64,000 nucleotides of DNA from Candidatus Omnitrophota bacterium (GTDB lineage: Bacteria; Omnitrophota; Gorgyraeia; Gygaellales; Profunditerraquicolaceae). Below, one piece after another: positions 1 through 64,000 of the stretch. Made by a program: the position numbers and the translations under genes. The stretch spans positions 148,243-212,242 of the forward strand of contig JACQXK010000004.1 of NCBI GenBank assembly GCA_016208765.1. The letters run 5' to 3'. The notes under the pieces were generated by a model that worked only from the letters and a program-made list of their open reading frames with translations, did not search any database and was not told where the DNA came from. How positions within the stretch are numbered: the first letter of the stretch is position 1; every line of letters begins with the position of its first letter.

Positions 1-330
1 ATACATGGCAAGCGTACGCAAAACCTTATGGCCGCATTTGTCATACCATGGTGGATTTGAAAAGATCCTATGAAATCTTTCATTAGGCCCCAAGCAATCA
101 TAAAGATCTCCGCAGCAGACCTTCACATTTTTAAATCCACTCAAGTTGGAAACAGCATCATCAAAAGCATCTCTATTAATATCAGTGGCAACAAAACGGA
201 CACCCTCAACGTTCTTACTGCTCATAGCTATAGCAGCAGTCAATATTCCGCTTCCTGTGCCAATCTCAAGCAAACGGCATCCAGTGTGAATATTTTGGCC
301 TATTACATCAACAGCCATATCTGCCAATTG
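1..330 (-). other. HemK/PrmC-type (NPPW motif IV) SAM methyltransferase domain, truncated by the window edge (LEIGTGSG ... DINRDA ... NPPWYDK)
   Basis: Motif I at about 235..260 and NPPW at about 25..45. Confidence 0.55.
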
Positions 331-3300
331 CGGCTCATTATTAGGGAAAGTCGTTTTGGTAGCACGTATTCTTAGCGGGCTTGAACTTAGAGTAGAAATA
401 TGAAACAATTCTATTCTTGCTCTCACAGCCGAAGAGGCGCTGTAGATAGAACCGTCATAATTATTTGTTAACCACATGGGAGAAACCGCCGAAGAAGCTG
501 AAAAGTTTCCCCAGTTATCAGATATAATAGCTATGTCCGGTAAGCAACAATGTTCAAGATAATGCATAAACGACGGAGTATTTATTCTCCAGAATATTTC
601 TTTTACCCTTGATGTACCCTTATAATTATCCAGAGGCATGCTTCTCTGAAGGCCGACTAACGGATTAACCAACATCTGTATTTTAAGATCAAAATATTTA
701 CGCCATTGCCTCACTAAAAGATAATTCCTTTCAATAATCACCACGCTCCTCTGGCGATTAATCGTTAATAATTGCGGTGGCAAAGTCAACTCTCCGCAGC
801 CATCTTCATCATAGAGATCCTTTAATTCATAAATTAATTCATTTTCCCTGCCTTTATTAAAATTCCTTATACTCCTTAGCAATCCTCGTAATACAATCTT
901 TCTTGAAGAAATTTTATTATCATTTACGCTAATTTCATTATGCGACAACTCGTGATCCTGCCAACGATGGCGTTGCATTCTTACACGTGTAAGCAAATCT
1001 CCGTGAATTAACACTACATTAATACCCTCTAACCCTAACGCATATTTAATTTTTTCTGCAGTTGCAGTCTCAAATACAGAATTACCATCTAAAGCCACAA
1101 CTAAGGCTTTATCAGGATTCAGCCTCATAGCAGAAAGAATTTTCTCTTTCAACATATGTATAGTAGAAATATTGTAACCATATCTATCCACCCGCTTATA
1201 TCTCATCTTTTCTAAGAATTGCCTGTACTTGTCATTAAAATATAGGCCCAGTCTTTCTAATTCATCTTTCGGTTGAGCCGGGATTCTGGAAATACCTTGC
1301 CAATCTTCATCCTGCCATACTGCCGATTCTCTTTCATTAAGCCTCTTTCCGATACAGTTATGAACAATTAAGTCGTAGTCTGGGGATATCTTATGCACTT
1401 GATAGAATTCTCTAATTCGCGGCTCGCCAAAACAAACATTCCCTCTCTGCTTAAGATTATAATACCGGGTTTTCTCATCTGCCCAGACATAAACCGTAAT
1501 ATCAAACTTGATACCCAATAAATCTTGCAGTAACAATATAAATATACTATCAATAACAATTACCCGGCGGCGATTCTGCAGCAATAGCGATTCAACATGA
1601 CGCTTGAATGACTCGGTAGTTAATTCATCAAAAAAAACCCAAAGAAATTCTTCTCCATACGGCCGAGCAAAGTCATCAACACGTAAATGTAGTGTTCCAT
1701 CTATTTTCATTAACTTTACAAGTTCCTTACAAAATTCGGATTTTCCAACGCCTGACTCTCCGTCAACAGCCACAAGAATCGGGCGGTAAAAATCTGTCTC
1801 AAGCATTTTATCTTCAATTAACTCTTTCAATAAAGAAACAGCCTGAGCAGGGAAAATTGTGGCTTTAGCATCTGGAAAGATAGGTGAGACTTCCATTCTT
1901 CCTTGCGTGGTCACTAATGCTGCCGAGGTGGCGCTGCGCTTACCCACTGTCCCGAACGAATCGGAAACAGTTTCCGAGTTGTTAGGGAAACTGGGACCTT
2001 TTAGCACCACCGATGATGCGCCGTTTTCGGAATTAAATTTTGAATTAAGTATTGTGTCCCCGGAATTGCCGACAGAAAAACTTGAAGGATTTTTTTGCGG
2101 ATTAAAAGGTATTAGAACGATTCCTTCCTCCGGCGGACCGGTTTCCAAAACCACTGAAGAAAATTGGCTTACTTTTAATATGGCCTGTTTTGCAGCAGCT
2201 TTTAATTTAAAAGGATAGTCGCCGCGCAATATCTCCCCTATTTCTCCCAACACCCACAATGGATCAGAATAACAATTTAAATCATAAAAAAGCCAGAAAA
2301 TCGGAACAGGATTGCATGAGCCTGAATCTTCATTCATTTCTGAGAAATAGATATATTTCAGAAGGCGCAATGATTCTGCATACTTGCTTCTCTTATCAAG
2401 TTGCATGCACAAATAACTATAGAGCTCAAAAGCGCAAAATGACAACTGATTCGTCACAAAATTCTTTCTTTTATTTTCTCTGGCCCACAAACAAAAGGCA
2501 AATTTCATACATCTTGAGAGGCCTTCATTCTCAGCCAATTTAGCATACCAAAATAAAGCCAAAATGAGCTCTTCAGGAGATGCTTCCTTAGCGCGCTTAC
2601 CATTTGAATCTTTAATTTTGGAATAACAATTATTAATTTTTGTTTGGCTGGAATATTTTGGATTTAAAATAAAGGACATAAAATCAATGAACCTGTTCGC
2701 TTTAACAGCAGCCTTCAGACGATGATACAAACTAAGAGAAAATTCAAGCGGCATACTTAATTGTTCTAAGCATTCTATCAGCAAACCAATTCCATCAATT
2801 TTGTCTTTCAGCGCAGAAGAACACATTTTCTCAGGATCAAAACCAGGCTCATTATTTCCCACTAAGTTTATTCTTTTTAAGAAAAATTTATGCATATAAG
2901 CAAAAAAGTTTCTTTTTCTATAAGCATCGTGCGCCTCGTAAGGAATACGAGAGAACTGATCTTTCCCATTAAAAGCTTCCGGATCGCGGCCGCTTTGTGA
3001 TAGAAAATATTCCGATTCTTCCAAACTATCTTCTTTAAGCTCAAATTTAGGCATACCCCATCTATTCAGGAATATATTCATTACCCCTCTTATCGTATGG
3101 CCATTTTTGTCCCAAAAAGGATGTAACTCCATAATAAAACGCCAATGAGCCTCGGAGATTAAATCAATTATCCCAAGTTTATCAGGATTATTATTTAACA
3201 AATCAAGGATACTTTTGACGCCCTCTGAAATTTCTTTTCCGGTAAAAATTGGGAAAGTCTTAACAATATCACCTTGGCAACCTTCATCTAAAACAATATC

Positions 3301-6300
3301 TCTAATCTTACAGGAAAGGCCACTCCGGTATTTTCCTGCCAGGTCTGATCTCAAATCATACTCTCTGAAATATAAACAATTTAGCAATATTACATCTTCT
3401 TCAGTAAGTGGCCTGTTCGCACAAACTAAATAATTAATTAATTCACAGGAAGTGGCAATTTCAGGGCCGTTTACTTCTTTCTCTATGGCAGAGCTGGAGT
3501 TATGATAAAAATGTCCACTGTTTTTCACCGACGAGTGAGCTCCACGTTTACCCACTGTCCCGATTGATTTGGAAACAGTTTCCAAGTTGTTCGGGAAACT
3601 GGGCTCTTTTAGCACCGCCGAGGATGTGCCCTCATCGGAATCAAGTATTGCGCTGCTGCCGGAATTCCCCTTCCTGCGTTCTTCCTTTCTCCTGGCAGTA
3701 GCAATAATAAATTCATTGACTGATGCACATATGCCTCCAACGCCTAAGCCGCTATCTTTGATTGTAGCTTCAGGATCCCTGTCTCCATTAGCTGCACCCC
3801 AATTATTTATACCTAACGCCAAAACTGGATTCCTTGTCTCCGGGAAAGAAGTAACGATGCCGCTAACAGTATCTGCCAGAATCTCCTTCTTGGCGTCATG
3901 TATTGTGATAATAGGAACACCGTCGATAATCAATCTCTTAAGATTTTCTTTTAATGATTCGTTATCTAATCTTGTAACATTAATAATCCGAGCCGTAATA
4001 TTTTGGCGCCTGAGCCACGATGTTGCCTCTAATACGTTCTTCATTATTGCGCCCGTTGCTATAATAATTACATCCGGATGTTCAATATCTTCCCCTTTTA
4101 TAACATAGGCCCCCTTGCTGGGCTGAGAGGAACAACCTCTGTCTAATAAGGGGATGCTTAATCTTGAGGTCCGGAAATATACCGGCCCCTGCCTGTTTAA
4201 TGCTAGCTTCACAAGTTGATAGGTCTCATTCTGGTCAGATGGCTCAAAGTATGCCAATCCTGGAATATATTTATATAAAGCAGGTTCGTAAGAAGATTGG
4301 TGGCTGCGCCCCCCCATAGCCGAAGTTACCCCTCCAACTGCCCCCCAAACAATTACAGGTAAATTATCCTGTGCAATAAATCTGATTTGCTCTGCCATAA
4401 GATTAACCATGGCCTCATAGACCACAATGACCGGCCTCTTTCCTGAATCAGCTAAGCCAGCGGAAATGTTGGCCATACATTGTTCACGAATCCCGATATC
4501 ATAATATCTCCCAGGAAACTCCTTTTTGAAGACATGAATCCCCAAAGAATGAGAACCGGTAAGATCAGAGGTCAATAAAATAATCCTCGTATCGCTATTG
4601 GCCAGTTGGATCAATGATTGAATAAAGGCCGAAGTATTATTTTCGGGAATCATTTTTTCAGAGCTGAAGAACATTGCCTCAGCCTCAACTGAATCTGTGG
4701 CATCTTCAGGCATCTTCCTTATTGGTTCTTTTGGCCGATCAGAATTACATTTATGAATAAGCTGCTCAAGAGTAAGCCTGGTTTGCTTTTCTAATAAATT
4801 TATCTTTGCAATCAATTCGGCTTCCCCTTGCCGGAATAATCGTGGACTGGGCTGGCCATGGTGCCAACGTGAATTACCCTTCAAAGAATCCTTCTCCATA
4901 TAGGATATACCCTTGCCCATGATGGTATTGGCTATGATAATGGTAGGCATCTTTGTTTGCTTTCTTGCCTGTCTCAAGGCTTTGCCTAACGCCGCAAAAT
5001 CATGTCCATCAGTTTCTATAACGCGCCAACCACTCATTCTCCAAAAAGCCGAATTACAGGTCCTTGTATTTTTGGATGTTGGGCCGCTCAGCTGCAGATT
5101 ATTTTTGTCCATAATGGCGATCAAATTCGACAGCCCCAAGAAAGGCGCGACAGCTGCCGCTTCGCTAATCTGCCCCTCTTCTGATTCTCCGTCTCCGAAA
5201 ATCACATACGTATGACGCGATCTTCCGTCAATTTTATCAGCAAGGGCCATTCCGATACCTCGGCCAAGCCCTTGCCCTAAGGATCCAGTAGAAGCCTCTA
5301 TGCCGGGAGTCAAATAAGCGCAAGGATGGGCATTTAATATAGAACCGTACTTGCGAAAGTTATTAAGCTCTCTGCGCTCAAAGAAACCAAATATAGAGAG
5401 TATTGAATACAGGGAGGCTGCAGCGTGGCCTTCGGATAAGATCAATCGATCGCGATTTTGCCAATCATCAATTATTAAATGCCCATCGAAATATAGAGAA
5501 ACTAAAATATCTGTAACACTATAGGTCGCGCCAAAATGGCCGGCGCCGGACATTCTTATCATATCAAAAGCATCTTTTCTTACCCATGCGGCGACCAATT
5601 CTAAATCCTTTTGAGTAAATAGAATTTTAGGGCCGTTTCCTTTTATCCTTATGGCAGAGCTGGAGTTATGATGGAAGCGTCCCTTGTCTTCTGCCGCCGA
5701 GGAGGTATCATTTCTTGAATTAAATATTGCATCACCGGAATTATCCGAGATTTTCTTTATCATTAAATCACGCAGCAGAGTTTCGCCACCCATATAAAAA
5801 GCAAGAGAATTATGACTTCTAAAATATGTATCAAGCTCTTCCATCTTGATAATTGTTTCTTCTCCAAACAACTCAATAAAAGCTGGCATATCGCCTCTCA
5901 TATAGATACTCAAGAACTCTTTTATCGTAATACCATAGTCTGACAATATTAATCTTATTATTCCCCCAATCAAACTTCCTGCCGGAGACGGAAATTCTGG
6001 CTTAAATCCGGTCTCAAAGCTCGAAAAAAGCATAAAAACTGTTTTTGAACGAGCAAGCTGTAAGCTAATTGCTTGGTTAGAGAACTCCATATAGGCAGTG
6101 ATAGCCAGCCATTCTACAACACCTTCATTAACCCAAGTAATACCGTTACCCTGAGCAATATAATGGAAGGCTTCATGGAGAATCATCATTATTTTTCTAT
6201 TTGTATTACAGGCCTGAAACTTATTTTCATTTAAAATTATCTTATGATAAAATGGCGTTAACATTCCATCCGCTGTAGGCATATGCTGTAAAATTCTACC

Positions 6301-9300
6301 AAATAATACATCCTTGGAGAAATCTTGAAAAGAAAAACCATATTTATCGCAAAAACTCCTAGAAATCTGAACAGCTATTTTAATCAATGCCTCTTCGTCT
6401 TTATTTGGCTTTCTTGAATACTCTATTTCTCTTAGGATGACCTCAAAGAGTCCTTTAAAAACCCGCAAAAGAACCTGTTCCTTGGTTTTGGCTTCCCAAT
6501 CTCTCCTAATTTCTAGAATCCTTGCTGTGCCGTAAATAAAACTTGCTGAAAGGGCAATCTCAGAACTAAGTACTGTTTTCTTAAACTTCCTAAAAACTTT
6601 ATTTACTGACTCAATATATTCTCTCGCGTATATTCTATTTGATTTACTGACCGCCGCCGAGGAAGCACCCTGCTTACCCACTGTCCCGATTGATTTGGAA
6701 ACAGTTTCCGAGCTGTTAGGGAAACTGGGCCCTTTCTCCTGCGCCAAAGAAGCATCTGTTGCTGGCGAGCTGGATTGATTTTTAGGCTTAAATATTATTC
6801 TTTGCGGCAAATAGTTCCCATCTCCTCTTCCGCTAAGAACAGCTATGTAAATTCTTGTTCCCACCTGTTCGAGATGAATTTCTTTTCTAGTAAATAAGAT
6901 TTCGGCGCAAGCTTGATTATAATTAAATTCGTAACTATCCCTTATCCCCTTAGCCTCAACAAAAAGAACGGCTGCATCAAACCAAATTAATAAATTGTAT
7001 AAATTCGCAAAACCACAACCCCGGCGAGGACGAGTTCGCTCAAAAAGGTCAGCCGGAAACACGATTCTCTTATCAATGCCCAAGCCGTTATCAACTGCTA
7101 AAAGCTCAAAAATATTCCCCTTATCACTATTTCTGCCTTGAACCATCCTGCAAAGAATAATCATATTTCTATCTGCGGGGATATATTCGGTATTCAAAGC
7201 TAATTCGTGAGCAACTTTGCCTGCTGCCTCCTCAAGAGAAGTTGGTTGCTTATAGGCTTCTCTTACAGTGTCTTCAGCCATAAATTTACATCTACCCGAG
7301 AGAGGACTAACCAAACCATCATCGTATTCAAATGTTTCACGCGGCTCATCAAAAGTAGAAACGAATTTATAATCTTTAAACGGAAACCTATTCACAAAAC
7401 CTTGTCTATCACCGGAATCAAGATATCGCATTAGAACAGCAAATAAATCATTAGATTCTGACAAACCTGGTTTAGATTTCTCCTCAACAACAGAAGAAAC
7501 TCCTGCCAACGATGAACTTGCGCTACTTCTTGGCCGAGTTAATGAAATGAACGCTAAACCGATGAGAACTGAATAAGATAATGGTTTCGGCATAAAAAAA
7601 TCAGCGCCTGCATCAAAAACATCTCTTCTGTATAAATCTGAATCAGAGCTCATAGCTATAATCGGGATAGTCAAGCCTATGTTTCTGGCCCGCCGAATCA
7701 ATACCGGGCCGGTCATGCCCGGCATACAGCAATCAGTAATCAGAATATCAAAACTTTTCTTTGAATCTAATAAGCGCGAGGCTTCCAAGCCATTTGACAC
7801 CATTACATATTCAATTAGAACTCCTTTACCCTTTTTTCTAACCCAGCTATTATAATGCTCAAAATGGCCCTTAATTGTCATTTGTAAATCATCATCATCT
7901 TCTGCCACCAGCACTCTTTTCTGGATAATTTCATCGGGAAGACGAATATTACAGCCTTTTTTATTATTCTCAGGCACTGGGGAAGAAACAGTTACTTCAA
8001 CAAAAGGATTAAATCCCAAATCGCTCCAAAGAAGAACCCTCTGTATCCATAATTCCTTTGCAGAAAAGGTTGAAGAATTTTGCCTGATATAAGCAATGCC
8101 ATGCTGCGGAGAGATCAAAAAATTATAGCTCCACAACCTGCTATAAGTTAAAACAGAAATATCTGATGCCTTGCTTATAAAACCATTGCCGCGGCCTGAA
8201 GCAATCTTTAAAATTTCCTCATATTCTTTAAGATAATCTGCCCTGCAGATTAGATACCCCCTGGCATTACGATAATCAAAATTATCCGGCAAGGTCTTGA
8301 GATAATAATTCCGAGTGCTGTAAACCGGCAGGTTATCGTGAATCAAAACAATCTTCTCGCCTTTAGTGGTCAAAACTACGATAATTAAAAATGTGCAGCC
8401 GTTAAAAAACTCCAGAGAATCATAGAGGAAATTTCCGGATATTAACGGTGAAATCCTCGTATGCCCCTTCACCCGGAATAAACGACGGCCCCCCAGCTTT
8501 CTTGAAGATTCCCTGCTGCTGATAAGTTTACCTGTAATGGCATTATAGCTATGCACTAAGCCGGGGAATTTTGATGCAGAAAGTCTGGCCCGCGGTAACC
8601 ATGGTTTCGTGTTTAAAATACTGTTATATTCTTCAATAATCCTTATAAAATCAGCTTTTTCTTCCAACGCCGATGAGGCAGGTAAAATATCCTGAGGGAT
8701 CCAATATTTCTTAATCTGCCCCAACAAATCTTTTTCCACAAGCTTATTTAATCTTTCAAGATTATCGGAAAAATGCTTAATCTGCTCTTCTATTGCCTCT
8801 TTTCTTAACCTAAACTCTTTGGTTTTCATAAGCAATGCTGCGGGCTGACCAAAAACATCTTTAAAAACATTCACAAAATCCATATCAAATGAGCAAGCGC
8901 CTTCTATTAAATAAACCAGTTGTAGTAATTCATTTCCGTAATCTATAATCAGGCCCTTTTCTTCTTCCCCAAATTCCTGCTTGCCTGCACAAACTAATAA
9001 TTGCTCAATTATTCTACGAGATGATCCAATAAAATTAAAAACAGCTGCCTGCTTTATTTGAGCGGATTCTTTATTGTCTTCTATCGGAGATGCTGAGCCT
9101 TTTGCAGGATGAACAGAAACATCCTTTTTTACAGGAGAAATCACGCTTTCTTTTGGAATCTGTAGTAAAAGAAACCGGCCATTTATTTTAAATGCCCTAA
9201 GGCCTAGCCTTAAAGAATATTTCTCAATCTGTCCGCCAAGAAAACGCATCGCAGCCTCAGTACAAAACATACCACCATCTCTAAAACCAGAATTATTAAC

Positions 9301-11259: not shown

Positions 11260-11268
11260 CCATTTTTA
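11184..11268 (-). other. Frameshift junction splitting a class-I SAM methyltransferase domain (motif I, VGCGDGS, is in the upstream frame; post-I and motif II/III, FDLVLFNESL...LLNKYGKILIID, are in the -1 frame). Candidate one-nucleotide indel near the TTTTT/GGTCTGG run at 11238..11250.
   Basis: The giant frame reads ...ILSVGCGDGSLEKLLLKNGCVVFG then nonsense and a stop. The overlapping -1 frame reads ...GAYVGSAYAAIEIMQRVALNCPEIAAPGGFDLVLFNESLNSMRGIELVLRQAFSLLNKYGKILIIDYANP, matching the equivalent stretch of the two other methyltransferase copies in this gene (GISVEGWELDRQLY / GINVFGCEFNNSLY). Confidence 0.6.
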
Positions 11269-14200
11269 AGCAAAAGTTTTTCTAAGCTTCCATCTCCACA
11301 GCCTACTGAAAGAATCCTGGTTTTATTCCCGGCACAAGACTCTAATATTAATCCAAGAATGAATTTTCTGTATCCTAAGCATGATATCGTATCCGTACTC
11401 ATTGTTTTCCTATCTATGTTGTCATAAATTTGCCGCAATACCTGGGAGTAAACCCTCTCCAAGAAAGAACTCCAATTATCAATCGGAGCCAAAAACGCAC
11501 TAATAATTGCCTCGTTTAAAGGAAACTTAGTTACACTTCCTTCCTTTTGATAGGCTTCAGCGCTTTTCAAATCTTCAAAATATAAATAAAGCAGAATGAA
11601 AAAACGCAATAAATCCTGATAGCTTAATAAATTAGCAGAAAAATAGCTGACAACTTCTCTCAGGAAAACGCATATTTTCAGTTCCACTTCTTCTCCAAAC
11701 ATGGAAGATAATCTAAGAATAAGAATTCTATCCGCTTCAGCATCATTAACCATGCCAGAAAAATTTTCGTTATCAACCATGCAAGATACTTTCTTAACCA
11801 AGCCACTATGCTTTCCATCATCGGATAATAACTGCAAAAGGCTATTTAAGTCATATTTACTTACTGTCTTACTCCCAAGCGCAGAAGACACACAAGAATT
11901 ATCCATGTAAACTTCACATAAATTTCCATTAGCAAGAGATTTAAGAACGGAGGAAGAACTATATCCATTGTTAACGATAGAGAATTTTGTTCCCAGATTC
12001 ATTCGGCACCAAAAACTATTGTTGATTATTAAATCGTACTCTGGAGTAAAAGCGTAAATATGCGGCAGCTTGATAGACATCTGTATTGCTTTCTCATTAG
12101 AAACTCCCCTTGATATAAGATTCCTTCGGCGAGTGGCCGGACTGGCGCGAATATTTAATTTTATATCAAACTGCGCACCCAACTTAAGAAGATATTCTTC
12201 AAGATACAATGCTTTGAACCCCTCAACAATAAGCACCTCTGTCCGGACATCTTTCAAAACCAAAGATACCTTATCTCTCAAACTATACCAATCAATTATT
12301 TCACATAACTGTTTAGATTCATTTTTATAATTTACGACAAAGTCATCAATATGCAAAACTTGCACCCTATAATCTTCTCTTAAAAGCGCATAAGAAATAG
12401 TTGTTTTACCCACAGCCTTCTTCCCATCAATGCAAACTAACACTGTTGTCCCTAAGGAAAGCTGGCCTTTTTTAAAATCAATTACCTCTTTTAAATATCC
12501 AAATGCCCATTTTGCCGGAACCGGTATTCCTAAAAAGTTCATAAATAATGAGGCTAATAATTTCAGGAAATTAATCGTTCTATAGATAACTGGCGACGCT
12601 TTAATATTTTGACCCACCGCAGAAGAAGAAATTGAGTCAATTTTAAACATTAGCTTCTCGCGAAAATCCCTATATCCTTTTTGCTTATTTATAAAATCAT
12701 AATAAACAACATTCCTGCTAATATTGTCGCGGAATGTTTCATCAAACCCTATCAATAACGTTGGAACAAGTATTCCTTGTTTCTCAATATCTCTTATCAA
12801 TCCAAGCCCCTGATTGTCTTTTAATTCGCAATCAATAATAAACACATTAAATTTTTTAGTTCTTAACAAGCATAAAGCCGCATCTTTGTCGCTAACAAAA
12901 CTACGCTCAATTTCAATTGATCTTCCTTGGTCATTTAAGAAATAGTTAAACGAATCAAAATACTGAATTATATCTCTACGCAATGGAGCAAAATCAGTTA
13001 CAACTAATACCTCCACAGTTATACTACTAGAGCTCGCTCTGCCTCTAATCTTAACCGCAGATGAAACGCTCCTCTCTTTGTTAATATTACCTAAAGTTTT
13101 TCTTAGTTTATTTTTAAGCTCCTCTGGGCCTTTTACCAATATCGCCTTTATTCCGATTGCCTTTGCCGGTTCAATATCAGTTTGCTTGTTATCCCCCAGA
13201 GAAACACATAAATCAGCAGAAACTCCCAGCTGATTAAGAAGCCACACAAAATCCTTAACACCGGCAGAACCCTGAGCAGAATAAACCGCGTTAAATAAAT
13301 CATAAATTTCTAATATTCTAAGCACCTCTTCAGCAGTTATTTTTGCGGAACTTGTATACAGAATAAATTTATACCTGCCGGTGGCTTTAAGCTCAGCAAG
13401 AAGCATTTTTAATTCCTGGTCAGGAGTTTTTAAATATTTGCTAACTTGAATACCGGCTTGAGCCATAAATTTCTCTTCAGCAGATATCCCAAGAGCTTTT
13501 AAAACTTCTACATCCTGCACCCAACTGTTGCTTTTACCCTTTAATTCATTTCTAACAACACTAAACTTCCTCTTTGCGTGATTTATTGCAGGCAATTTTA
13601 ATTGTGCTTGGATTAGCGCATAAACTAAATTCATATATGCAGCGATAAGGCTGCGGCAATTATGCAAGGTTTTGTCTAAATCAAAAATTAGATAATAAAT
13701 CGGGCTGGATGAAGTTGGGAAGTTATAAATAGCAGGAGCTGTGGCAGCTATTTGTGCCGGCGGTGCCCTGCCACGCACAGCTAAATCCCAACCTGAAATA
13801 TTAGTGATGTTTCTATTTTCCTTATCCAGCGCTGAAGACGCCCGGCTGATTATTGCGTTAGCAGCAGCATCCGGACTAATCTGCCAGAAATATTCTGCGG
13901 GTTTTTTCCTAAAATCACTGCGATATCTTGACCATGCTCTATCTAATTTATTCTGCGGTATACTTTTTGTAAGGCGCAAAAAACAATCAGCTTGTATTTG
14001 CGACCACGTCCGCCATAACGGCTTGGGAAGGCCCGCAAACCTTTCCCAGTATATATCCGGAATAATTGCCGCGTTTATTCTTCCAAGCCCTTGGCGCTTT
14101 GCAGTTAACCCAGTAACAAAGAAACCAACGGAAGAATAATACTCTGTTAACCCGTTCTTCAATTTTGCTTCTTCTTCATCCAAACCGCAAATAGCCCAAA

Positions 14201-50200: not shown

Positions 50201-53200
50201 CTCCAATGTCAGTTCGCACATCCTCTCGCACATCGTCACAAAGCTTATCTGTTGCATTCACCACCTGAAGAAAATAATCTTCCGCCTCTTTATACCGGGA
50301 TTGCCTTAAGGAACAAAGACCGAGATTCTGCAGCGCATCAACCTTCAGCATGATTGAAAGCCCGGATATCGCCAAAACGCGGCTATAAATCGTAGCAGCA
50401 GAATCATAATCTCCTTTTTGCATAAAGTTATACGCGGCAATCATTTCATCTTCCGGATTTGGACGGAAATATTTTATCGCGGAACTGGCAGCTAACTTAC
50501 CCTCTTTAGGAATAATTATTAAGGTAACGGCTTTTTTATTCTTAATATCATTGTAAGCCCGAACACTCCAGCCATGTTCTGCGGCCACGCTATAAATTGT
50601 TTCTCCTCCAATTCCTGAATGCCCGGCAGAAGAATCTCCTGTTGAAATTCCTTTTACAAATACTAACTGCCTATTAAGCTTTGTATCTATTAACAACATT
50701 TCCTTAGGAAATTCTCCGCTGTTACTATATTTAACAACAATTGTTTTTGTATTTTCGTACAAAGCAAGAACGATTTCCCCAAACTGACCCGGAATGGCTT
50801 TTAACCCATTCTTTCCTAAATTGCGCATCAATAAATCCAGATGATGCCTATTCACCCAAACCATTGTTTCTGAACTAACACGGCTAATAAAACTAAAAAT
50901 AAAAGCCTTCTTATTCTCCGTTCCTTTAGGAGTCCTCCTGTTTATGCCCGTTTGTTCCCCTCCTTCATTAACATTCAAGTTTTGGCCAACAACAATTGTT
51001 GCCCTCATTAAATCAGCGAGAAAATAAGGTTCTTTCCGTACTTTCCCCTCTAAAGGAAAAATAACTTTTCTTTTTTGAGAAACACTGCGCAAAGCATCAA
51101 AATGCTCTCTTAATCCAGCCTCAATAAAATAACTGTCATTTACAAGCATATTTACAATATTTAAACGGTTTTTAACCCATGGCTCGTCTTTAATGTCATC
51201 AATCTTTATTCCACCGACCATTTCCCGCAACCTGACCAACGCCCCCAAAATAACTGAATCATAATAATAAAACATTAAGTCTAAATTTGAACTTTTAGGA
51301 GCAAATTTTGTAATAGTGTTAAGGTTACGATATAGTTCACTCAAAGCATCAAACAACCTCGCTTTTATTGAAGAGGCATCTGCAAAATACATCTGAACAT
51401 AAATACGATCCGTTCCTATAGGAGTCACATAATCATGCCTGATTTTTCTTAAAATATCTTTTATTTCATCAATCTCTTTCTCATTGAGTTGCCTTGAAAA
51501 GACAGAGCACAAGCAATAAGACAAAAACGCCTTAAAAGCAAATATAATTATATTATAATATCTTTTAATTAATGGAATTAGACTTATTTTCCTCTCAAAT
51601 ATCGGACTTGAAGCCACAGAACCATGAAGGGCTTTATTAAAGTCTTTAGTAAGTGGCATAATAAGAGGCACGGAGTTAGAAGAGGCCCTACTGGCACATG
51701 GGATAAACCAGCCACGCCCCGTTGCAAAGCTGCAAATGTCCCCCACCCCGTTAGAAATAAGTTTAACAAAAGCCCAGATAAAATTTCTAACGGGGTAAAC
51801 CAGCCACGCCCCGTTGCAAATGAACGGATTCTCCCCACCAGCCACGCCCCGTTGCAAATGAACGGATTCTCCCCACCAGCCACGGAAGGTAAAGAATCGC
51901 TCTTTGATGAAACATTTGCAACGGGGCACGGAAGGTAAAGAACCGCTCTGTGATAAGACATTTGCAACGGGGCACGGAAGGTAAAGAACCGCTCTGTGAT
52001 GAAACATTTGCAACGGGGCACGGAAGATAAGACTTTGCCATAAATCAAGACTATTAACAGCACTGCTTGCAGTAAACCCTCTCACCACCGCGCCGACTGG
52101 AGAACTAGAAGTAGCCTTATTTTTTCCTGCTCTTAAAGACACTGCCACTCCTCCAACTGCTAAAACCACTCCTGCGGCAGCTATCGGATGAGGAAACTGC
52201 AGATTTAAAATGCTTGAGAAAATCAAAACAAAAGCTGGGGATGTATTGGTAATACTTTTATTTAAGGAAGTATCGAGTTCAGCCAATGCACGATAGCTTA
52301 AAATCAAACTAACCAAGCTTAAAACAGTTACCATAAATATGCGATAATTAAAAACTATCACATCCCCACCTACAAATATCTTTGCCAAAATTACCATGAT
52401 CGGAAAAGATACAAAATAAGCCCAAGCCAACAGCTTTGTTATCGGCATAATATCCCCGGTCTTCTTTTTAATAATTTCTGCTATAGCATAGGTAAATGAT
52501 GAAGCTATTGCTAAATAAACCCCTACTGCGTTTATGTGTGCATCAATGGCTTTATTCGCAGAAAATACAGAAACAGCAATTACGCCTGCTACAGCCATAA
52601 GTACTCCAATTAACTTCTTTAATGTTACTGATTCTTTAATCAGTAACGGAGCGATGAACACTAAAAATATGGGAGAACTCTTAATAATCACTTCGTTAAC
52701 TAATATAGAATTATATTTAAGACCAAAATAATATAGCGGGGATGACAATATTTGAGAGAAAAATATGCCTAAGCAGATAATAAATACTTCTTTCTTTGAT
52801 ACTCTGGTGTTGTCAATGCTTGAAGTAACACTTGCAGGCTTTATTATTTTTTTCAGGTTAACCCATATTCGATAAGAAAGTAATATCAAAAAAGCATAAA
52901 GGTAGTAGCTAGTCTGGATCACTAATGGCTCTACTCCGGATTCAGTTAATTGCTTCCCGAAGAATGGCTTAACTGCTACTAACATTGCACAAAGCAAAGC
53001 CATAATTACGCATTTTTGCTTAGAAGTTAACTGCAGCGCGCTGGAGGCAATTGCATTAATAAATGACGCCGGCGGGCCGCGGGAGAAAATAATTTTACCA
53101 AATATAGAGCTTATAGTGGAAACCCGGCTTACCCGGGCATCATAAACAGGGCTGGAGGTTGTAATTATCAAAGCGTTTCCCTGTAATTCTGCCATTTCTA

Positions 53201-56200
53201 CAAGGCCGGGAGAAGAATGTAACACTCCGGCATTAGCATCAAAAAGGTAACTCCTTATTCTGTTAACCCTGCCTGAAGCAGTTTGCGAGGGGCGAAAAAC
53301 AAAAGTATCCAAGAATAAATCGCTCGCCATAACCAAATCTACGCTTTCATACATGAATTTACCAAACGACACTAACGCTGCGATAACTGAAAGATTAAAA
53401 TAATCACCTTCTAATAAAAGCGGCCTTTGGCCGTCTTTAGAGTTGAATGTTAAGCCATCCACAGTAAACACATCGTCTTGTTGTTCATGCACCCTGACAA
53501 ATAATTTCTTACCATCAGGACGGGTAAAAATTAGAGGATATGTCTCCCTGTCATCCCGACTCTTGGAAGCACGCCAGCCAAGAAAATTATCAATTTTAAG
53601 AGGGATATTGTGCCAAAAAGCGAATCCTGTCCTCAAAAGACCGAGCAGAGTAACACGGTTATTAGGAAAAATTAAGTATTCTTTTTTCTTCTGCACTGAA
53701 TTATCAAAGCTCCTGAATTCAACCGTATCATTGGGATAATAAACATCAATAACCGCACCATTCCTTGATGTTTTCGCCGTATGTTTAGGAATCAGTTTTT
53801 CCCCGCTTCCGGACAAAATTATCCCCTCCGGCCTAAGTTCAAAAACTACAAAATTGCTTTCATCCTCTCTATCACTAATAACCATAAACCTGCTGTGATG
53901 CGGCATATCTCTATAAATATTAAGCCGGTGATTCCCGGTTGTCCTGTAATAAGAAGCTAACGAAATAACATCTCCTCCAAAAAAAATATTTCTGCTGTTG
54001 TTAGTTTCGGGCACAGGGCAGATCCTTCTAAGGAGGCTAAACAAGATATTTTTTCTCTCTGAGCCGAATTTATGCGCAACGCCTAAGCAAGCGTCCCTAA
54101 ATGCAATAAACGCTTCAGAAATATCAATAAACAAATTCTCTTTATTATCTCCCTTGGCCACTTCACTGATAATCACACGGCCATCTAACTGAAATTCTAA
54201 AACTATCGCCTTTTCTGAATCGCGCAAAATAATCTCAATTTTTCGGTTTGTAATTAAATAAAGCGACATTTCAGAAGAGGTTGAATGCGGGCCGTTAATA
54301 TTTCTTGCGGAGATTCTACCAGAAAGCATATCAGGAATAGTGATTCTTACGTCGGAAAACCTGAAATTCCTACTAATAGGCTCATCTGTATATTCCACTA
54401 AAACAACCATACCTAAATCTGCTGACTTTAAGTCATGAGTTTTCATCCAAGAATACAAGGCTGCTAACTTTTTTGACGCTGTATCAGCAGTAATGCTGGG
54501 CATACGCAAAACAACTTCAGTAGGAGTGGGAGCTCGTCCAAATTCATTCTTAAAAGCAGTTACAATACCCATAATTTCTAATTTCCTCTGTTCTGTAAAG
54601 ACAGCGGATTTTGCCTTTCTTGCTGCAACACTCCTTTGTACTGCTAAACTGGGAAGTTTTTCTTCCGTGCCTTGCGCGTTAGTATTTGCAGCAGAAGAAG
54701 CGCTGTTAACTGCCACCACCGCGCCTACTGGAGAACTTGCATCTTGTTTATATAATGCTTGGTTTGCCTGCTGGAAATCTAATTTATGCGCGCCCTCAAT
54801 ATCAACAGACCTCCCCCCTAATTGCTTAATTAAATCCATTTGCCTGATTCTGCCGTGATTGACATAAAGCATCTGATTATGCCTGCCCCTAAAAAGATTC
54901 GCGATAGCTGCCAAGCCCAGCAGTTTACACATTTTTAAATCTTCAGGACAGGTATCTGCTGAACGATAAAAGTAATCCACTTTACCTGCCAAGCTTACGC
55001 CTAAGCCTGCAGCGGAAAAAACGTTTCCTATAAGCATGCCGGCATTCTCTAACTTTGGATGGCCAAAGGCATCAAGTTTTTTCGGGTCTGAGCCAGCTTC
55101 AAAAGCAGCTTTAGCTATAGGATTCTTTCCAAAGACCCTGGTTAATACAGCTGTATTTTCGCCATAATCCTTGTTTATCTTAACCCCTTCGGAAACAATT
55201 ACTATCGCCCAACCGTGCTTTTTATAATAAGCTCCGACATCAACGGTTAGTTTGTCCAAATCAAGGTTCGGCTCCTCAGGAATCAACGTACGGCTTGCCT
55301 GTATCTGCCTGCCGATTTCTAATGCTACGAACCCGGAATTCCTCCCAAAAACATCTACAACCAAGACTCTCTTGGTGCTGATTGCATCAACTTTTCCGTA
55401 AACTATAAGCGGTATTGCTGCCTGCACGAAGCTTAGAAATCCATAGGTAGTGGCAGTTGACTCAGGCAAAGCAATATCATTATCCATAGTCTTGGGTAAA
55501 CCGATAATCGGAAATTCCGGATGGTCTCTGTGTAAAAGATAAGAAACGCTATTCGTGTCATCGCCTCCGCAGGTAATCAGGCCGTCAAGCCTTAACGATC
55601 TAATATGTCTCCAGAGCAGGCCTGGAACACCCTTAGCAACATTTTCTTTACTATAGGGATTTGTTCGGCTGGTACGGATTACTGTCCCTCCCTGAGTGCG
55701 GTGCGGCTCGAGTTTATGCAATAAAAGAGGCTGAGCCTGGGAGATTAATTTTTCATCCACGAGCCCTTTCCAGCCTTCCCAAATACCGAATAATTCAATT
55801 CCAAACCTAGCTGCGGCTTTTGCCGCCCAATAAATTACCTGATTGTGCCCTGATGCCGGGCCGCCTCCGGTGAGAATACCGATACGCCTCATCGGGGGGA
55901 GGACGTCTGGAGTGACAGCGCTAGCAGCAACCAGTTTACCTGCCACCACCGCGCCTACTTTGTAGGGACGGTTCTGAACTGCGCTTGAAAGTGTCCCGCC
56001 CGGGGACGCTTCTAACCGTGTTTGAGAACCGTCCCTAATTATGGGGCTGGAACCATTTAATGTGTTTAAGAGTAATCCTAATATCTCTAATTTTTTGTTT
56101 TGCTCTAAGTAAAAGAAATACGGGTGAATGAAGATGGTGCCTTCAATAATTAGACAACCGGCAACTTTTGATTTGGTAAGTAAATTTCGCGAGGTAACTA

Positions 56201-59200
56201 AAAAATTAACCTCAAGCGGCGGAGCATTCTGTTGACAGCCGTTAGTTTGTTGAAACAATTTATTTAAAAGCGCTTCCAGATTTTCTTTACAAAATTCTGC
56301 GGATTGGCTGACTATTTGACCCGCCTCTTTCCCACATTCTACAATACTCAAAGATATTCTTCCTTGATCTTGATCAGGCTTTAGCGACAAAAACACATAA
56401 AAACCTTCAGGAAATGTTGCCGGCATACCAGACGGCAACTGCGATGGCACATCTAATGAATAACGTATCACTCCACCAAGCTCTGCGAGGCTGGATGATG
56501 CCTTACTCCGGCTAGCGGCGGATTCTTCTACAAGCCCCTTTGAAAACTCAATCTCAATATATGCGTAGCCATCTTCACTATTCCCGGCAACAATCTTGCC
56601 GCCTAAAATCTTCGTTACAATGTAATCCATGCTAAACATTCCCATGCCATGCCGGGTTTGCATCTTTTTTGAAGTTACTCCGTCTTTAAAAACCAACTGC
56701 CTGCCTCTTGCAAAATCATAGAGCAGGAATTCTTCAGGAAAAGCTCCGGTGTTACTGGCCCTAAAGATAATATTACCGGCATTATCTCTGCTGATATTTA
56801 CCTTAACTAATAATTTACTTCTATCTGCGGCCGCTGTAATTCCATATCCAACACCGCTAAACACGTCTTTAATATTACGCAGGATATTCTCAACTACTCT
56901 CTGCATCAGGCGATTATGCAAATTAATAATCAGATCCACGGCGCTCATGTCCTCAGAATAAATATTAAAGACAACAGCGCGGCCATTAAGATCAACAGTA
57001 ATACTCTGGCTGAATTGGCCCGCCTCCGGCAAAGTTACCGCGCAGCCAAGTTCTCTTTCTGCTGCCTGCGCAAATACCGTCTTGAGGCTTACCGGATCAC
57101 GATTGATCACCGTATTTGTCGCCATAGCAATATAATCCATTAATTTATCTGAAAGCGGTCCATCTTTGCCAAGGATATAAGCGCGCATATCCTGGATTAA
57201 TAATCTGGTTTCTACAGCAACTTCCGAAGGCTGGCTTAATTTTGTGCCTATGGCTTCTATTTCTGTTTCAAGTTTCTTTAATAAATTGACCACTCTGAAG
57301 AGCTTACCCGGAGAATCCAACGGCCCAACAAGCTCGGTATAACCTGATTCTAATTCTTCCAGAATTTTTGCTTTGACGCTCCTTGGAGTATTCATCAACC
57401 TCAAAAGATGATAACGAATCATTGCATAATTACGATGCCTAAAACTATTCAATACTATCTCTTTAACCTTCTTGTTATAAAGCCCCTTGAATCTTCTATA
57501 AACACCCAGATAAAAACTCAATTGCTGGTTCAATGCAAGTATGCTCGGCTCTAAGCTACTTACTTTTTGAATCGCGGCCAAAAGTTCTTCTCGGGCTGCC
57601 GATTCTTTTTCTACAGTATCAAGCATTTCATAATTTTGTCCGGCTTCCTGTAATGCCCTATTCGTATCAAGGGCCCAAGCATTATGCAAAATATCACCCA
57701 AAGTTTTTATCGCAGAAAACAGCTCTGTCTCAGGAAGAGATCTTGATAATCTAATTAATTTAGGAATAATATAACCTAAATCATGAACCGCTGCCCTTAA
57801 GATCCTGGAAAAATGCTCAATTCTCTCAATCAGAGAGCGCTCATTTAAGGCCTCTTGAGCCTGTAAGAGCTGCTCAGGAGTATTTATCCCAATAATTTCA
57901 TCAGCATCAGCGGTTTTAAGCAGCCTGACTATCTTGTTCGCAGTTATTAAAATATCAATTAAATAGGTAAACGGTTTATTTAATAACTCGGCGCATGCTA
58001 ACAAGTCTGCAAAAATGTTCTTTTGCAAGACACATATACCACCATTAAATAAACTTACTTTTTCCAGGTCTTGTGGGGTAAAGGTACGGCTGCCTTTTAA
58101 AACGAAACTTTGTTGTTCCAAAGCACGATCATAATCCCCTGACTCAATGATGCCAACAGCCCTGCCTTCTTCAACAGGTATAACCCCATATGTCCGGCAA
58201 GGCACAGAGTCTCTTTCCCGAGGCATATCAGCAACAATGATACTGGCATCGGCAACAGGATATTCAGGAAGATGATAACCTAAATGGCATTTGATCAATG
58301 AAAGCAAAGTCTCAGGCCTTATCCCCGGCACATCAGCAGGCATAATCATAATATGACCCTGGTTCTTCATCACTTCTAAAATTTTATCTTTAGACTGTTT
58401 TAAGACATCTGCGGTTTGAGAACCAATACATTCGTGAAATTGGATATTCAAATCTGTATAATTATTCCTGATATACTCACACACATAATCTTCTGCCACT
58501 CCAGTTAAGACCAAAATCGGAATATTATTGTCCGTGCCTTTTGAAACATTCCTTAAAGTATCCAAAATATAACCCAACATCGGTTTAATTTGCCCTGCAA
58601 CAGCAATACCTAATCCGAGTTTTATGCGAATGCCCATATCAACCAATAATTTCTTAATCCTTCCGCTCTTGCCACCGGCAAGTAATACTATGCCGACATT
58701 TTTAACTGCGCTGTGTTTATCAGTAGCTTGTTCATCATTAAAAATTTCTGACATAGATACAAGCCTTACACCACCGGGAGTGGAAGTTGCGGCGCTTGAA
58801 GCCGAATAAACTTTATTTTCTTTATATTTATCAAGCATTTGGTTTATTGTTGCGGCTTTTTCTCTGATTTCTCCTGAATTTTGAATAAAGTCTTTTGATG
58901 ATAATCTGGTAATTTCTTCTACTATGGGCCGTATTTGTTCTACAAAAGAGACAATATGCTTCCTCCTAAATTCCCCCCAAGTAACCCCTAATAATTTCAC
59001 ACGCTTAAATTTCATTTTATCAAACCCCTGCAGGCCCAAAAGAAAAAGGTGTTGTGTACTTTGAGTGCAAGCCAATACTGGATCGTCTATCTTAGTAATC
59101 TGCAAGAGCCTTAACAGAAATCTTTGCATTTCCCAAAGGACTTCTTCTCTGATTTCTGCAGGAGTATACTGATTAGTATTATTCATAAGAAAGTAAGTAT

Positions 59201-62200
59201 TAATTACCTGCATCCTGTTCTTGCAGATATGGCAAAACAGGTTGAATACCGTAAGCCTTAACTCTGCCTCAGTCATTTCTAAACTTGAACGCGGATTGAT
59301 AGATAAAAGAACGATCCTCTCTTTCTCACAACCACTTTGTGTTTGTAATACTGCTGCAAAAGGCCTGCCAAAACGGCTTAAAACTTTGCTCAATAATGAG
59401 TTATTTATTTCTTCAGGGGTGAAGTTAATTCCAAATTGCGCCATCAAATCTGCCAAATACCTGTTAAGCCTAGTTGTGACATTCTCCCTTAATCTTTCTT
59501 CTATATTAAAAGGGTTATTGGCTTTATGTTTCTTGTCTGCTGCAAATATCTTCTCTAATAATTTTTCTTCTTCGCGGTTCTTTCTCTTTGTCGCATTTAT
59601 CAGGCCGATCAAGAAAGTTACAGTCTCAAGATCAAGCGCTGTTCTAATCTCTACTCTTTCCACATCCGCAATAACCGGCTTTAATAAATCCGCCACCTTT
59701 GAGGCAATGCCAAGATACCTTGCCTGAGGGCTAAGGAACATGTCATCAATAAAAAATAATAACCCGTCTTTTGAGAAACCGCCCCTGAAACATCCCCATG
59801 CTCCGGAATTAACCAGGATTTTAAACCTTTCTTCGTTTTCTTTCTTTGAAGCTAAGAATTCTATTGCCAGAGAGTATTCAGTCTCTCTTTTGGGTTTTTC
59901 CAAAGCAAAGATCCCGGATAATCTTAACACCATCCTATTTATTACAGAAACACTAGTCTCCGGCAAGTTAATCCAGCGGTCATTAAACGCTTCTCTTAAT
60001 GTCTGCTCAAGCGACGATGAAACAGTCTGAGATAACCCTGCCACCACTGCGCCATAATTAGCAAAGCTGGATAAAAAATTAGAACCATCTCTATTGCTTA
60101 GAGCGCTACTTGCGGCAGGCCGAGTCACCTCAGCAGATTTTATGAGAATCTCTTCTAAAAACTCTAATGTTGCTTGTGGCGAACGCCCAATATGAATAGC
60201 CTCAGGAGTAACTGCTTTAAACTCATCATTAACTGCAAGAATATTACCTTTAGCTAAACATTCCTTGATTGGATCATCATTTCCGTTTTTATAAAATTCG
60301 TCACCAAAATAAAAGAAATTAATTTTATTTTCTTTCTTACCAACACCTAAAGAATCCGATATTGTGCTTATGAAATCCTCTAAGGCTACATTTTTTTGAG
60401 CAGTAGCACCGGTAATATCAATTGTTGTTCCTCCTCCAGTCCGGATATTAAAAGAAGCGCTTTTATCACCCAAACATCTACTGAAAGATACCATTAAGCT
60501 TTTCCTAGGGTCAGTTTTGTCAGACAATTCTGGGATAGGTTTTACAGCTAAGCTTCCATACATTGTTTGGCCATCATCAGTAACTATCACTCCTCTTGTT
60601 TCTACCCATGGAAATGCCATCTCTTTTTTTACTCCAGTATTTTTAGCTTCATCCTTAAAATCTTTAATATCTTGCGAAGGATAATATTGAATCGTAAATG
60701 GCGGATTCAGGCTTTCTTTCCAGGGTGTTTGCAGAACGAAATATTTATTGTTGCTTTGCGCCGAGTTTATAAACTCTTTCAAAGCTTCCCCCGTTAACCC
60801 AAAATTATTAGACGCTGCATTTTCTATAGCCTGATTGATAACTTTCTCTATAACCTCTTTATTCATCGCATGTTTTAGATTATATTTCCTAATATTACCA
60901 TCATTAAGATCTTCTTCTCCTCTATCAGTAAAACCTATTTTTGTTGCGCCTCCGCTAACATAAAATGTTAAATTTACGAAAGCTCGTTGATCATTTCTCA
61001 TCTGTTTCTTTATAGCATCAACAATCCTGCTCATTTGTTCCTCTTTTGAATTACCCGAAATAATAGCCACTTTCACGCCTTCTCGCAACAACCGCATAAA
61101 AACATAAGCAAGGCGCGTATAATTAGTAACCGATTCTGACTTCTTAGGAAGGATGGTTTTATCAACGTCAAATACAAACCCACCCTGCCGCCTGATTCTT
61201 GCCCAATTTCCTATGATATATGAAATAACTCCTCCAACAATAGGGTCATCTTTAAACAACCCTAATTGTCCATTTACCCACAACCTTCTATCAGCACTTA
61301 ATGTTGCAAGGACCAACCTTCCTGCATCTTTCTTCAGATCAACTATTTTAAAACCTGCCTTTTTAATTCCAAAAAGAGAAATAATTGCTTCCCGCAACTC
61401 AGTAGAAAACATTTCTATTTCATCTGACTCAGCCTTAACTGCAACACCGCTAACTCTGCCCATAGACACATCGGTAACCTCAGTTAAATCATTAAAGGTT
61501 CTCTCAACATCCTCATCCCTTAAATAACTATCTAAGACATAATCAACGTAACTGCTAATTTCTTTATCAAACTCAACTTGTGCATCACTTTGCATATCGC
61601 TTGCGATAAAACGATAAATTTGCTTCAGCTTTCTTAACAACTCATTGCCTCTTCCGTCACGCTCCCTTCTCATTACTCCAAGATTTATCTTTACCGCCGA
61701 TTTAGCATTTTCAATCGCTTCTTTAATTCCGGGAACAATGAGCACCGGAGCGATATTCTTTTCCAAAGAGACATTTGAATAAATAATTACATCAGCTGTT
61801 TCTATCGCTTCTTTTGCCTCTTGAGTGATGGAAACTGTTTTCGCACCCCGCGTTGAGGAAAAACTGCTAATAGCTTCCGCTACTTGGGGAACATGTTTTT
61901 TATCTATTTGCCTCGTTGAGATTTCTATATCTTTCTTTAATACCTGCATTTCTTTTGTAACCTCAAGTACTGTAAATCTATTTGGTAAACGATAAACAAT
62001 GTCTTCTGTTACCCTGGCTAATTCATCAATAAAGGATTGAACATTAAATTCATGAGTATCGTTATTAACCAACCACATACCAATAATTGGCGACTTAGAT
62101 TTATAATGCGTTAAACTTTCTTCTGAAAAGTGGATTGTTCCATCTTCCCTGATAGCAACCAGATGCTGCCTTTGCTCTGTCGGAAGAATTACCCGATCTC

Positions 62201-63917: not shown

Positions 63918-64000
63918 CCTTTCAATAACTGCCCCATCCCAAGTTACAAATGCAGCAAAGGCCGCATTAATTAAATATTTAAGGTACCCCGTAGGCCCTG

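Follow-up and report, generated by a model that had tools for sequence, protein, structure and literature searches.

Giant genes have been described in the Omnitrophota by West-Roberts et al. (2023, bioRxiv 10.1101/2023.11.21.568195) and are also documented in this phylum by Seymour et al. (2023), while Nielsen and Lui (2026, 10.64898/2026.06.07.730766) recognize a "multi-enzyme metabolic cluster" class and a Pfam module that groups methyltransferase, HATPase, GNAT, HAD, and HD domains. Whether such a protein acts as one molecule or is cut into many is stated as an open question in the giant-protein literature, and West-Roberts et al. indicate that information on cleavage points is lacking. 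Here, we analyzed a stretch of 64,000 nt (hereafter, the window) from the Candidatus Omnitrophota assembly GCA_016208765.1 (contig JACQXK010000004.1, positions 148,243–212,242), all of which is coding on the minus strand, with coding continuing past both edges. The identity and architecture of this locus as a giant multi-enzyme chain are held with high confidence, and the explanation as a whole, in which the window is an internal fragment (at least 64 kb; no fewer than 21,333 codons) of a single giant Omnitrophota gene on the minus strand, we regard as probable. The chain is a series of cassettes, each matching the extent of a complete free-standing protein, and is punctuated by a short, lineage-specific peptide motif. 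Coordinates below are window positions, and all features lie on the minus strand.

The locus belongs with the known Omnitrophota multi-enzyme giants. The initial annotation had set it apart from classical giant proteins; however, the class had already been described by West-Roberts et al. and by Nielsen and Lui, and an enzyme collage in a giant open reading frame (ORF) is not in itself new. Nielsen and Lui apply a length of at least 10,000 aa, which the longer of the two ORFs in the window exceeds alone (17,604 codons), as does the merged chain (21,333), with both ends open. Published Omnitrophota proteins of 10,000 aa or more number 5,761, and the giants of West-Roberts et al. exceed 30,000 aa, most of them with a divergent SecA DEAD domain. 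Approximately 20 unrelated families were confirmed by searches with hidden Markov models (HMMs), none of which dominates by copy number, the only high-copy element being a 14-unit helix-turn-helix (HTH) array that makes up 5% of the chain. Also shared with the described giants are the Pfam "Module 1" content (methyltransferase, HAD, HD, and REC), embedded transmembrane helices (by hydropathy scan, an EamA block and three isolated hydrophobic segments), abundant sequence dark to Pfam (over half of the sequence lacks a family match), and poor conservation between genomes. Unlike those giants, the window returned no match to glycosyltransferases, glycoside hydrolases, NUDIX, SecA-DEAD, C39/S8, HATPase_c, or peptidases, so that from the Archaeovorin domain set of West-Roberts et al. 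only methyltransferases are present within it, and its transmembrane content is a single transporter block. What we add to the described giants is the [A/S]SS[A/P][V/I/L] punctuation, for which we found no report in the literature searched; linker or cleavage motifs are not mentioned in the main text of either Omnitrophota giant-protein paper, and none emerged from the literature search.

The initial annotation read the window as one polypeptide, which stands as a single reading unit but one that is broken once, into two ORFs joined by a 1-nt frameshift within a methyltransferase. ORF A (11184..63998) runs for 17,604 codons, from 63998 down to 11187, without a TAA, TAG, or TGA in its frame, before a stop at 11186–11184, and has its N-terminus beyond the right edge. 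ORF B (1..11265), shifted to the −1 frame with respect to ORF A, comprises 3,755 open codons and has its C-terminus beyond the left edge; since both ORFs leave the window, the gene is longer than 64 kb. The remaining four frames contain 844 to 1,790 stops each. As no stop of any type occurs in the ORF A frame, no recoding is needed, and an alternative genetic code was rejected on this ground. The two ORFs overlap by 79 nt (11187..11265), a zone in which both frames are open, which holds a run of five A and a run of five T, and which splits a Methyltransf_23 domain (window 11014–11327, residues 17558–17662 of the merged chain). ORF A stops just past methyltransferase motif I (ILSVGCGDGS...), with the later motifs (...GFDLVLFNESL...) lying in ORF B. 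Unmerged, the two halves match complementary parts of the profile at 14.8 bits (positions 22–49) and 19.6 bits (positions 79–128), while the junction read with a −1 shift gives one contiguous match of 36.9 bits over positions 22–128 (cut-off 27). Given that the domain is whole only when merged, we treat the window as one reading unit with a single 1-nt indel, most simply an assembly error or a very recent mutation. Reading through the frameshift gives a merged chain of 21,333 aa, M, whose residues are counted by the M coordinates.

Should the frameshift instead be real, a decaying or split gene would yield two proteins or a pseudogene rather than one chain. The two frames do differ, ATG codons occur at 11259 and 11202, and on contigs L001, L003, and L004 the relatives, too, fall into successive ORFs whose frames differ. 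However, the shift bisects a single methyltransferase domain, adjoins the A5 and T5 runs, and is the sole such break in 64 kb, and the candidate starts have no preceding Shine–Dalgarno-like sequence; we consider a split gene unlikely. Far less probable still is an artefact, whether a contig chimera or a run of genes whose stops were miscalled or lost. While the unrelated modules do each look like ordinary genes, the stop-free 17,604 codons stand against the stop counts of the other frames, and the GC content at third codon positions (GC3) is nearly uniform along M (0.35 ± 0.04 in 300-codon windows), which argues against a chimera. Furthermore, module order is partly conserved, as syntenic multi-module fragments, in an independent metagenome-assembled genome (MAG), and giant genes have been documented independently, including in curated and complete genomes. 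Chimeric assembly was rejected on the GC3 and module-order evidence, and the chimera with lost stops that the initial annotation had itself raised does not apply.

Upon self-comparison of M, we noted a recurring short word, S-S-[A/P]-[V/I/L], in 54 copies between 373 and 63155, each of which was located. These comprise 36 copies of SSA[VIL] and 18 of SSP[VIL], against 3.1 in shuffled sequence. Shuffling in blocks of 10–40 aa, which keeps the local composition, gave 3.5–4.1 copies (maximum 10), and permutations of the motif residues occur only 0–7 times each; the possibility that the motif is a by-product of Ser/Ala-rich linkers was rejected by both counts. In 43 of 45 cases, A, S, V, G, or T precedes the word, and the other flanking positions are not conserved; the extended form is [A/S]-S-S-[A/P]-[V/I/L] (hereafter, the mark), and the linkers around it are short and Ser/Gly/Asn-rich. 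Serine in the motif is encoded by both TCN and AGY codons and alanine by all four of its codons. This free variation indicates that the motif is kept at the peptide level and not as a DNA repeat, and a DNA-level repeat or recombination site was rejected accordingly. Internal translation starts after each mark were also rejected, as no enrichment of methionine was seen downstream of the motif.

The marks lie between domains and not within them. None of the 45 copies of SS[AS][VIL] falls inside a Pfam envelope, where 10.5 are expected (P < 2e-4), and those outside the envelopes are nearer to envelope edges than chance would place them (P = 0.005); two copies of the SSP[VIL] form are found within the EamA membrane block. 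When M is cut at the marks, the result is 43 linkers and approximately 40 gene-sized modules with a median of 369 aa, and the delimited modules are sized like free-standing proteins. A mark at 55977–55988 precedes the phosphofructokinase (PFK) module (54738..55976), which spans 413 aa between motifs, and the EamA/DMT transporter module (52107..53033, 309 aa) is bracketed by ASSAL and SSPV-GAVV-SSAV, with copies at 53034–53045 and 52056–52067. The HAD phosphatase module (13065..13697, 211 aa) sits between SSPI and SSAV (copies at 13698–13709 and 13053–13064) and is followed by REC module 1 (12627..13019, 131 aa) and P-loop nucleoside/PRK-like kinase module 1 (11958..12614, 219 aa). A complete transketolase module (3658..5649, 664 aa) lies between SSSAI and GSSAI/TSSAV (copies at 5650–5661 and 3646–3657).

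Comparison with free-standing proteins places the native termini at the same borders, as the N- and C-termini of three free-standing transketolases and four free-standing HADs project 0–15 aa from the flanking marks. One free-standing transketolase, P0002 (675 aa, encoded on a 3.6-kb Logan contig with a start and a stop of its own), shares 56% identity with the embedded module, while other free-standing transketolases reach at most 33%, indicating that the same transketolase cassette exists both fused and as a separate gene. At M 6148 and M 3652, a hydrophobic helix begins a few residues past a mark, in the manner of an N-terminal membrane anchor. A recurring short site at unit borders, as in polyproteins, is thus seen in three respects, namely the position of the marks outside domains, the projected termini, and the break points between relatives described below.

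All source-named relatives of the giant-specific regions are Candidatus Omnitrophota/Omnitrophica MAG proteins, which is strong though indirect evidence for an Omnitrophota origin. Two of these, P0001 (contig L001) and P0039 (contig L004), come from GCA_016214325.1, share 46–74% identity with M, and lie on contigs that are coding end to end; P0039 (3,278 aa, 1,101 bits) is 57–74% identical over several modules. P0028 is an Omnitrophota protein with the same long linker as M (see below), and the same source name is attached to P0041, P0056, and P0059, which are more distantly related. Scans of GTDB species genomes and JGI metagenomes returned only one related contig. M and P0001 are homologous starting exactly at the mark ..GAVVRTASSSV at the NTP-transferase module (..SIGAVVRTASSSV|KDG.. 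in P0001), upstream of which the two chains carry unrelated modules, in P0001 a PEP-utilizer, then ASSAI, then Trypsin_2. This Trypsin_2 module of P0001/L001 (JACROS010000092.1) has an intact His/Asp/GFSGGP triad and lies between two motif copies. Against the related MAG (GCA_016214325.1), three modules of M show presence–absence differences whose limits fall precisely at marks, namely the HAD module, which is missing from the orthologous chain of that MAG, and two others. Modules that neighbor each other in the relative are separated by 2,000 aa in M, and other modules are re-ordered. Overall, 9 of 20 alignment ends against relatives fall within 10 aa of a mark, against 1.2 expected (reached in 0 of 20,000 simulations). 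In evolutionary terms, the marks are the seams along which related chains gain, lose, or shuffle modules.

The motif is enriched in M and in a small set of relatives, namely P0039 (11 copies versus 0.5 expected), P0028 (4 versus 0.18), P0003 (2 versus 0.15), and the ORFs of L001 (5 versus 0.46), and SS[A/P][V/I/L] enrichment was absent from all of the other 22 long or free-standing homologues tested. In P0041, P0049, P0052, and P0056, we observed a different word, RSE[A/M/L/V]R, in 2–12 copies where approximately 0.2 are expected, which likewise sits by domain borders (e.g., 12 aa before HAD and 10 aa after ROK). These four are long multi-enzyme proteins, including ribulose-phosphate epimerase, HAD, ROK, and other domains. 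We regard RSExR as the analogous punctuation mark of another Omnitrophota lineage, and the use of two words for the same job in two lineages suggests that a co-evolving factor recognizes them and that they are not generic hinges.

To define the module content, M was tiled in 1,000-aa pieces, together with offset pieces, and searched against Pfam and NCBIfam, with larger pieces searched against PDB sequences. At or above the Pfam cut-off were CofD-like, PFK, two EamA halves, TPR blocks, HTH_23, His_Phos_1, two alpha/beta hydrolases, a Sigma70_r4-like HTH array, a DOT1-like methyltransferase, HAD_2, one REC, Methyltransf_31/23, a PCMT/MTS-type methyltransferase, and the three transketolase domains. 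Many genes do appear fused in frame, as initially proposed, combining cytoplasm-type enzymes, regulators, and one transporter, and the contrast drawn there with adhesins and with non-ribosomal peptide or polyketide synthetases (NRPS/PKS) holds, since no adhesin-repeat or NRPS/PKS family was returned by these searches of the window and either identity was rejected. Several of the motif-based domain calls of the initial annotation failed in the same searches even as the approximately 20 families were upheld.

Both of the central metabolic enzymes named in the initial annotation were confirmed by HMM. The PFK module (159 bits) carries GGDD and PKTMDND, the signatures of pyrophosphate-dependent PFK enzymes, and by these looks intact and of the pyrophosphate type. 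The transketolase module is complete, with N-terminal (160 bits), pyrimidine-binding (Pyr, 93 bits), and C-terminal (32 bits) domains, and retains the GDGESEEG...N thiamine-diphosphate motif, the cofactor-activating glutamate (IREQCM), and the histidine residues (GRSHQ). Judged by these retained motifs, the embedded enzymes look functional. The 10-helix EamA transporter was likewise borne out, by the two EamA halves and by a block of ~10 helices (M 3663–3953) that is the only dense hydrophobic-helix block in M, beside isolated hydrophobic segments at M 4150, 6156, and 15581. The even helix count places both flanks on the same side of the membrane, which in the DMT family is the cytoplasm.

Methyltransferases, of which at least four had been claimed, number at least five: a DOT1-like enzyme (15969..16481) with a paralogue at 40599–41120, and three further class-I enzymes, among them a Methyltransf_31 match (10090..10398); a PrmC/HemK-like methyltransferase (1..387) is truncated by the window edge. 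The alpha/beta hydrolases (36693..37370 and 14898..15635) are paralogues of 55% identity, and the PGAM-like phosphatase corresponds to His_Phos_1 (38175..38714). Also present are a CofD/YvcK-like module (61533..62309, 46.7 bits) and three TPR blocks (49872..50480, 46326–46802, and 34200–34778). The sigma-70-like HTHs of the initial annotation resolve into an array of ~14 diverged 78-aa tandem units similar to sigma-70 region 4 (21999..25211, M 12930–14000), the interior of which lacks the punctuation motif. Its units are mutually 23–33% identical, and a DNA-binding-type array of this kind is unusual within a giant protein.

Other calls fared less evenly. A REC domain had been named, and beside the one at the Pfam cut-off a second may lie at 7519..7974 (weak match). 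From two claimed HAD phosphatases, one (HAD_2) was found, and from three PRK-like kinases, two weak AAA_18/PRK-like matches were recovered (module 1 and a second at 1438–1773), leaving the second HAD and the third kinase without a match. The SpoT-like HD with an ACT domain retains its first part, a putative small-alarmone-hydrolase-like module (41631..42056) with an H...HD..E motif (NCBIfam 1.8e-4; PDB Mesh1 2.2e-6), but not the ACT. Weak or indirect evidence points to the NTP transferase, the arginase-like, the Fic-like, and the XRE (HTH_3) modules. The first of these (GlmU/MobA-like, with a helical C-terminal part; 57333..58796) gave 17.8 bits in Pfam and 2e-6 to the GlmU NCBIfam model and is 46% identical to the annotated Omnitrophota homologue P0001. 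The putative agmatinase/arginase-like module (19221..20864) has a family match of 1.3e-3 and is 74% identical to P0039, and the Fic-like module (3067..3297; 20.4 bits) has a degenerate HPFWDKNGHTIR motif. The three GHKL ATPases (one bare DNGLGI motif), HExxH (two bare matches), and the TGase-like module found no backing in Pfam, NCBIfam, or PDB.

A further domain without a family assignment occurs at M ~16450–16720 (window ~13840–14650), with the pattern ..IADLFYLK..YGFD...GRNxGNFLIKT..F..WA...YY..IGA...W..WSQRKMDRYF.L... We noted the same type of domain in P0039 (twice), P0040, P0046–P0048, P0053, and P0099, which come from several sources and often have two copies per protein. No phylogenetic marker gene is present in the window. 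AlphaFold2 run without an alignment on the HAD–REC–kinase segment gave a mean predicted local distance difference test (pLDDT) score of 31, which is uninformative on linker disorder.

In addition to the short marks, M contains four copies of a long linker of 45–65 aa (17811..17942, with the sequence ..KGPSFPNxxETVSKSIGTVGKRGASSAV.., and, from self-comparison, 6619–6753, 3481–3624, and 1885–2019), which is also present twice in P0028. Its core is conserved at synonymous sites too, with 71% of same-amino-acid codons identical, and holds a palindrome, GGAAAC(T/A)GTTTCC (GGAAACTGTTTCC), that encodes ETVS. In copy 1, a stretch of 23 nt is perfectly duplicated in tandem, and the two frames in which it is read give NSFQPNR and ETVSNPIG. 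The long linker is a possible DNA-level seam for cassette recombination. A profile of it found no match in a set of 5.8 billion proteins. We also observed repeated ..NSGDTILNSK.. linkers in P0059 (5,861 aa, from a Candidatus Omnitrophota MAG), followed by a hydrophobic segment, ..LAIAGIAGLEI..SLGAPGAGVACA.., and NSGDTILNSK occurs in the long linker of the window at M 20645.

A repeat element of a different kind lies just past EamA at 51700..52030 (M ~3990–4100) and is kept in frame. It comprises a 46-nt unit repeated 3.3 times (93% identity), then a 38-nt unit repeated 2.3 times (100% identity) that carries the reverse complement of the 46-nt unit core (CCCCGTTGCAAATG, three copies per strand), as well as a perfect 13-bp hairpin. 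Neither period is divisible by three, and translation of the element gives a peptide with an odd abundance of Cys, Trp, Phe, and Arg. The predicted RNA fold of the element reaches −162 kcal/mol, compared to −117 ± 5 in shuffles (z = −8.5). The element had no copies in related loci, and no RNA family was found in the window with Rfam. It may be an insertion resembling miniature inverted-repeat transposable elements or repetitive extragenic palindromes that has stayed in frame, or a structure for mRNA pausing or processing.

How such a chain would work is a separate matter from its architecture. The gene may act like an operon written as a single ORF, in which the chain would be translated as a unit, the EamA block would insert in the membrane and leave its two flanks on one side of it, and the marks would lie exposed for recognition by a factor specific to the lineage, most likely a protease that would free the modules as separate proteins. 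We infer both recognition and cleavage because the mark is word-like, lineage-specific, and coincident with native termini; because an intact chymotrypsin-fold protease module lies between marks in a relative; and because transketolase, an obligate homodimer, and PFK, an oligomer, are each present as a single copy tethered on both sides, an arrangement hard to reconcile with their oligomeric state. Actual proteolytic processing at the marks is possible, and we place it somewhat below even odds. More tentatively, these giants could be cellular polyproteins, with cassettes and lineage-specific marks from which a co-evolving protease would release stoichiometric sets, the marks and the long linker serving as shuffling seams. 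The initial suggestion of a polyprotein or scaffolded metabolon is in this way sharpened by the gene-sized modules, the ends at free-standing termini, and the conserved punctuation, with cleavage itself at the strength just given. If the marks are cut, viral polyproteins (picorna-like, nidovirus replicases) would be the nearest parallel, with gene-sized units in one ORF, a recurring border site, an in-chain chymotrypsin-fold protease (in the relative P0001), and equimolar output from one translation. The gene in the window differs from them in being cellular and 10–100 times longer, in its metabolic and regulatory content, and in the lack of a protease among the matches in the window. Several further points weigh against processing. 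Few relatives were recovered, so that five sequences, from three or four genomes, are what speaks to how general the motif is; no protease domain was found within the window in the Pfam, NCBIfam, and PDB searches, nor were the SecA-DEAD and C39/S8 domains typical of full-length giants; the three isolated hydrophobic segments could alter the topology, which comes from a hydropathy scan; and a conserved linker motif could instead be a docking, modification, or hinge element. Nielsen and Lui (10.64898/2026.06.07.730766) moreover argue that the longest multi-enzyme giant, at least, is largely extracytoplasmic.

The same evidence may be read as an intact tethered chain, beads on a string or a scaffolded metabolon anchored by EamA, with the marks as flexible hinges or as docking or modification sites, and this we hold to be possible without thinking it likely. 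That no protease was found in the window, that the linkers are Ser/Gly/Asn-rich like flexible linkers, that the TPR blocks and the 14-unit HTH array resemble scaffolding, and that published work treats such proteins as single membrane-anchored polypeptides would all fit it. Yet four residues in a fixed order, kept through synonymous change and with permutations that are not enriched, are more than a mere hinge would require, and such a hinge would not be swapped for another word (RSExR) in another lineage; the obligate oligomers are single-copy and tethered at both ends, and the modules share no common pathway. Fusions such as AROM/Aro1, fatty-acid synthase, and CAD also join normally separate enzymes in one polypeptide; however, they comprise 3–8 consecutive steps of one pathway without a repeated border motif, whereas the chain described here holds ~40 functionally unrelated modules shuffled among close relatives. 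The mark also recalls the processing sites of MARTX toxins, large bacterial proteins in which unrelated effector modules are separated by unstructured linkers that an in-chain protease cuts at short sites. A multi-effector delivery protein of this or the polymorphic-toxin type, with modules released in prey or host by autoprocessing at the marks, would accord with the view of Omnitrophota as predatory or episymbiotic and of giant proteins as implicated in prey interaction, and the Fic-like, alpha/beta-hydrolase, methyltransferase, phosphatase, and alarmone-hydrolase modules represent typical effector activities. We nonetheless judge it improbable, as RTX/glycine-rich repeats and a cysteine protease domain had no Pfam or NCBIfam match in the window, no secretion signal is visible (the N-terminus lies beyond the window), the PFK, transketolase, REC, and HTH modules are of housekeeping or regulatory types, and an embedded 10-helix transporter would be hard to export.

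The occurrence of a lineage-specific motif at module borders provides concrete candidate processing sites and makes the question of one molecule or many directly testable. If these sites are cleaved, the Omnitrophota giants would represent a bacterial polyprotein strategy of gene expression, one so far linked with viruses, and their giant ORFs could be parsed computationally into mature proteins. If they are not, the motif would still offer a practical rule for dividing the giants into foldable units for structure prediction.

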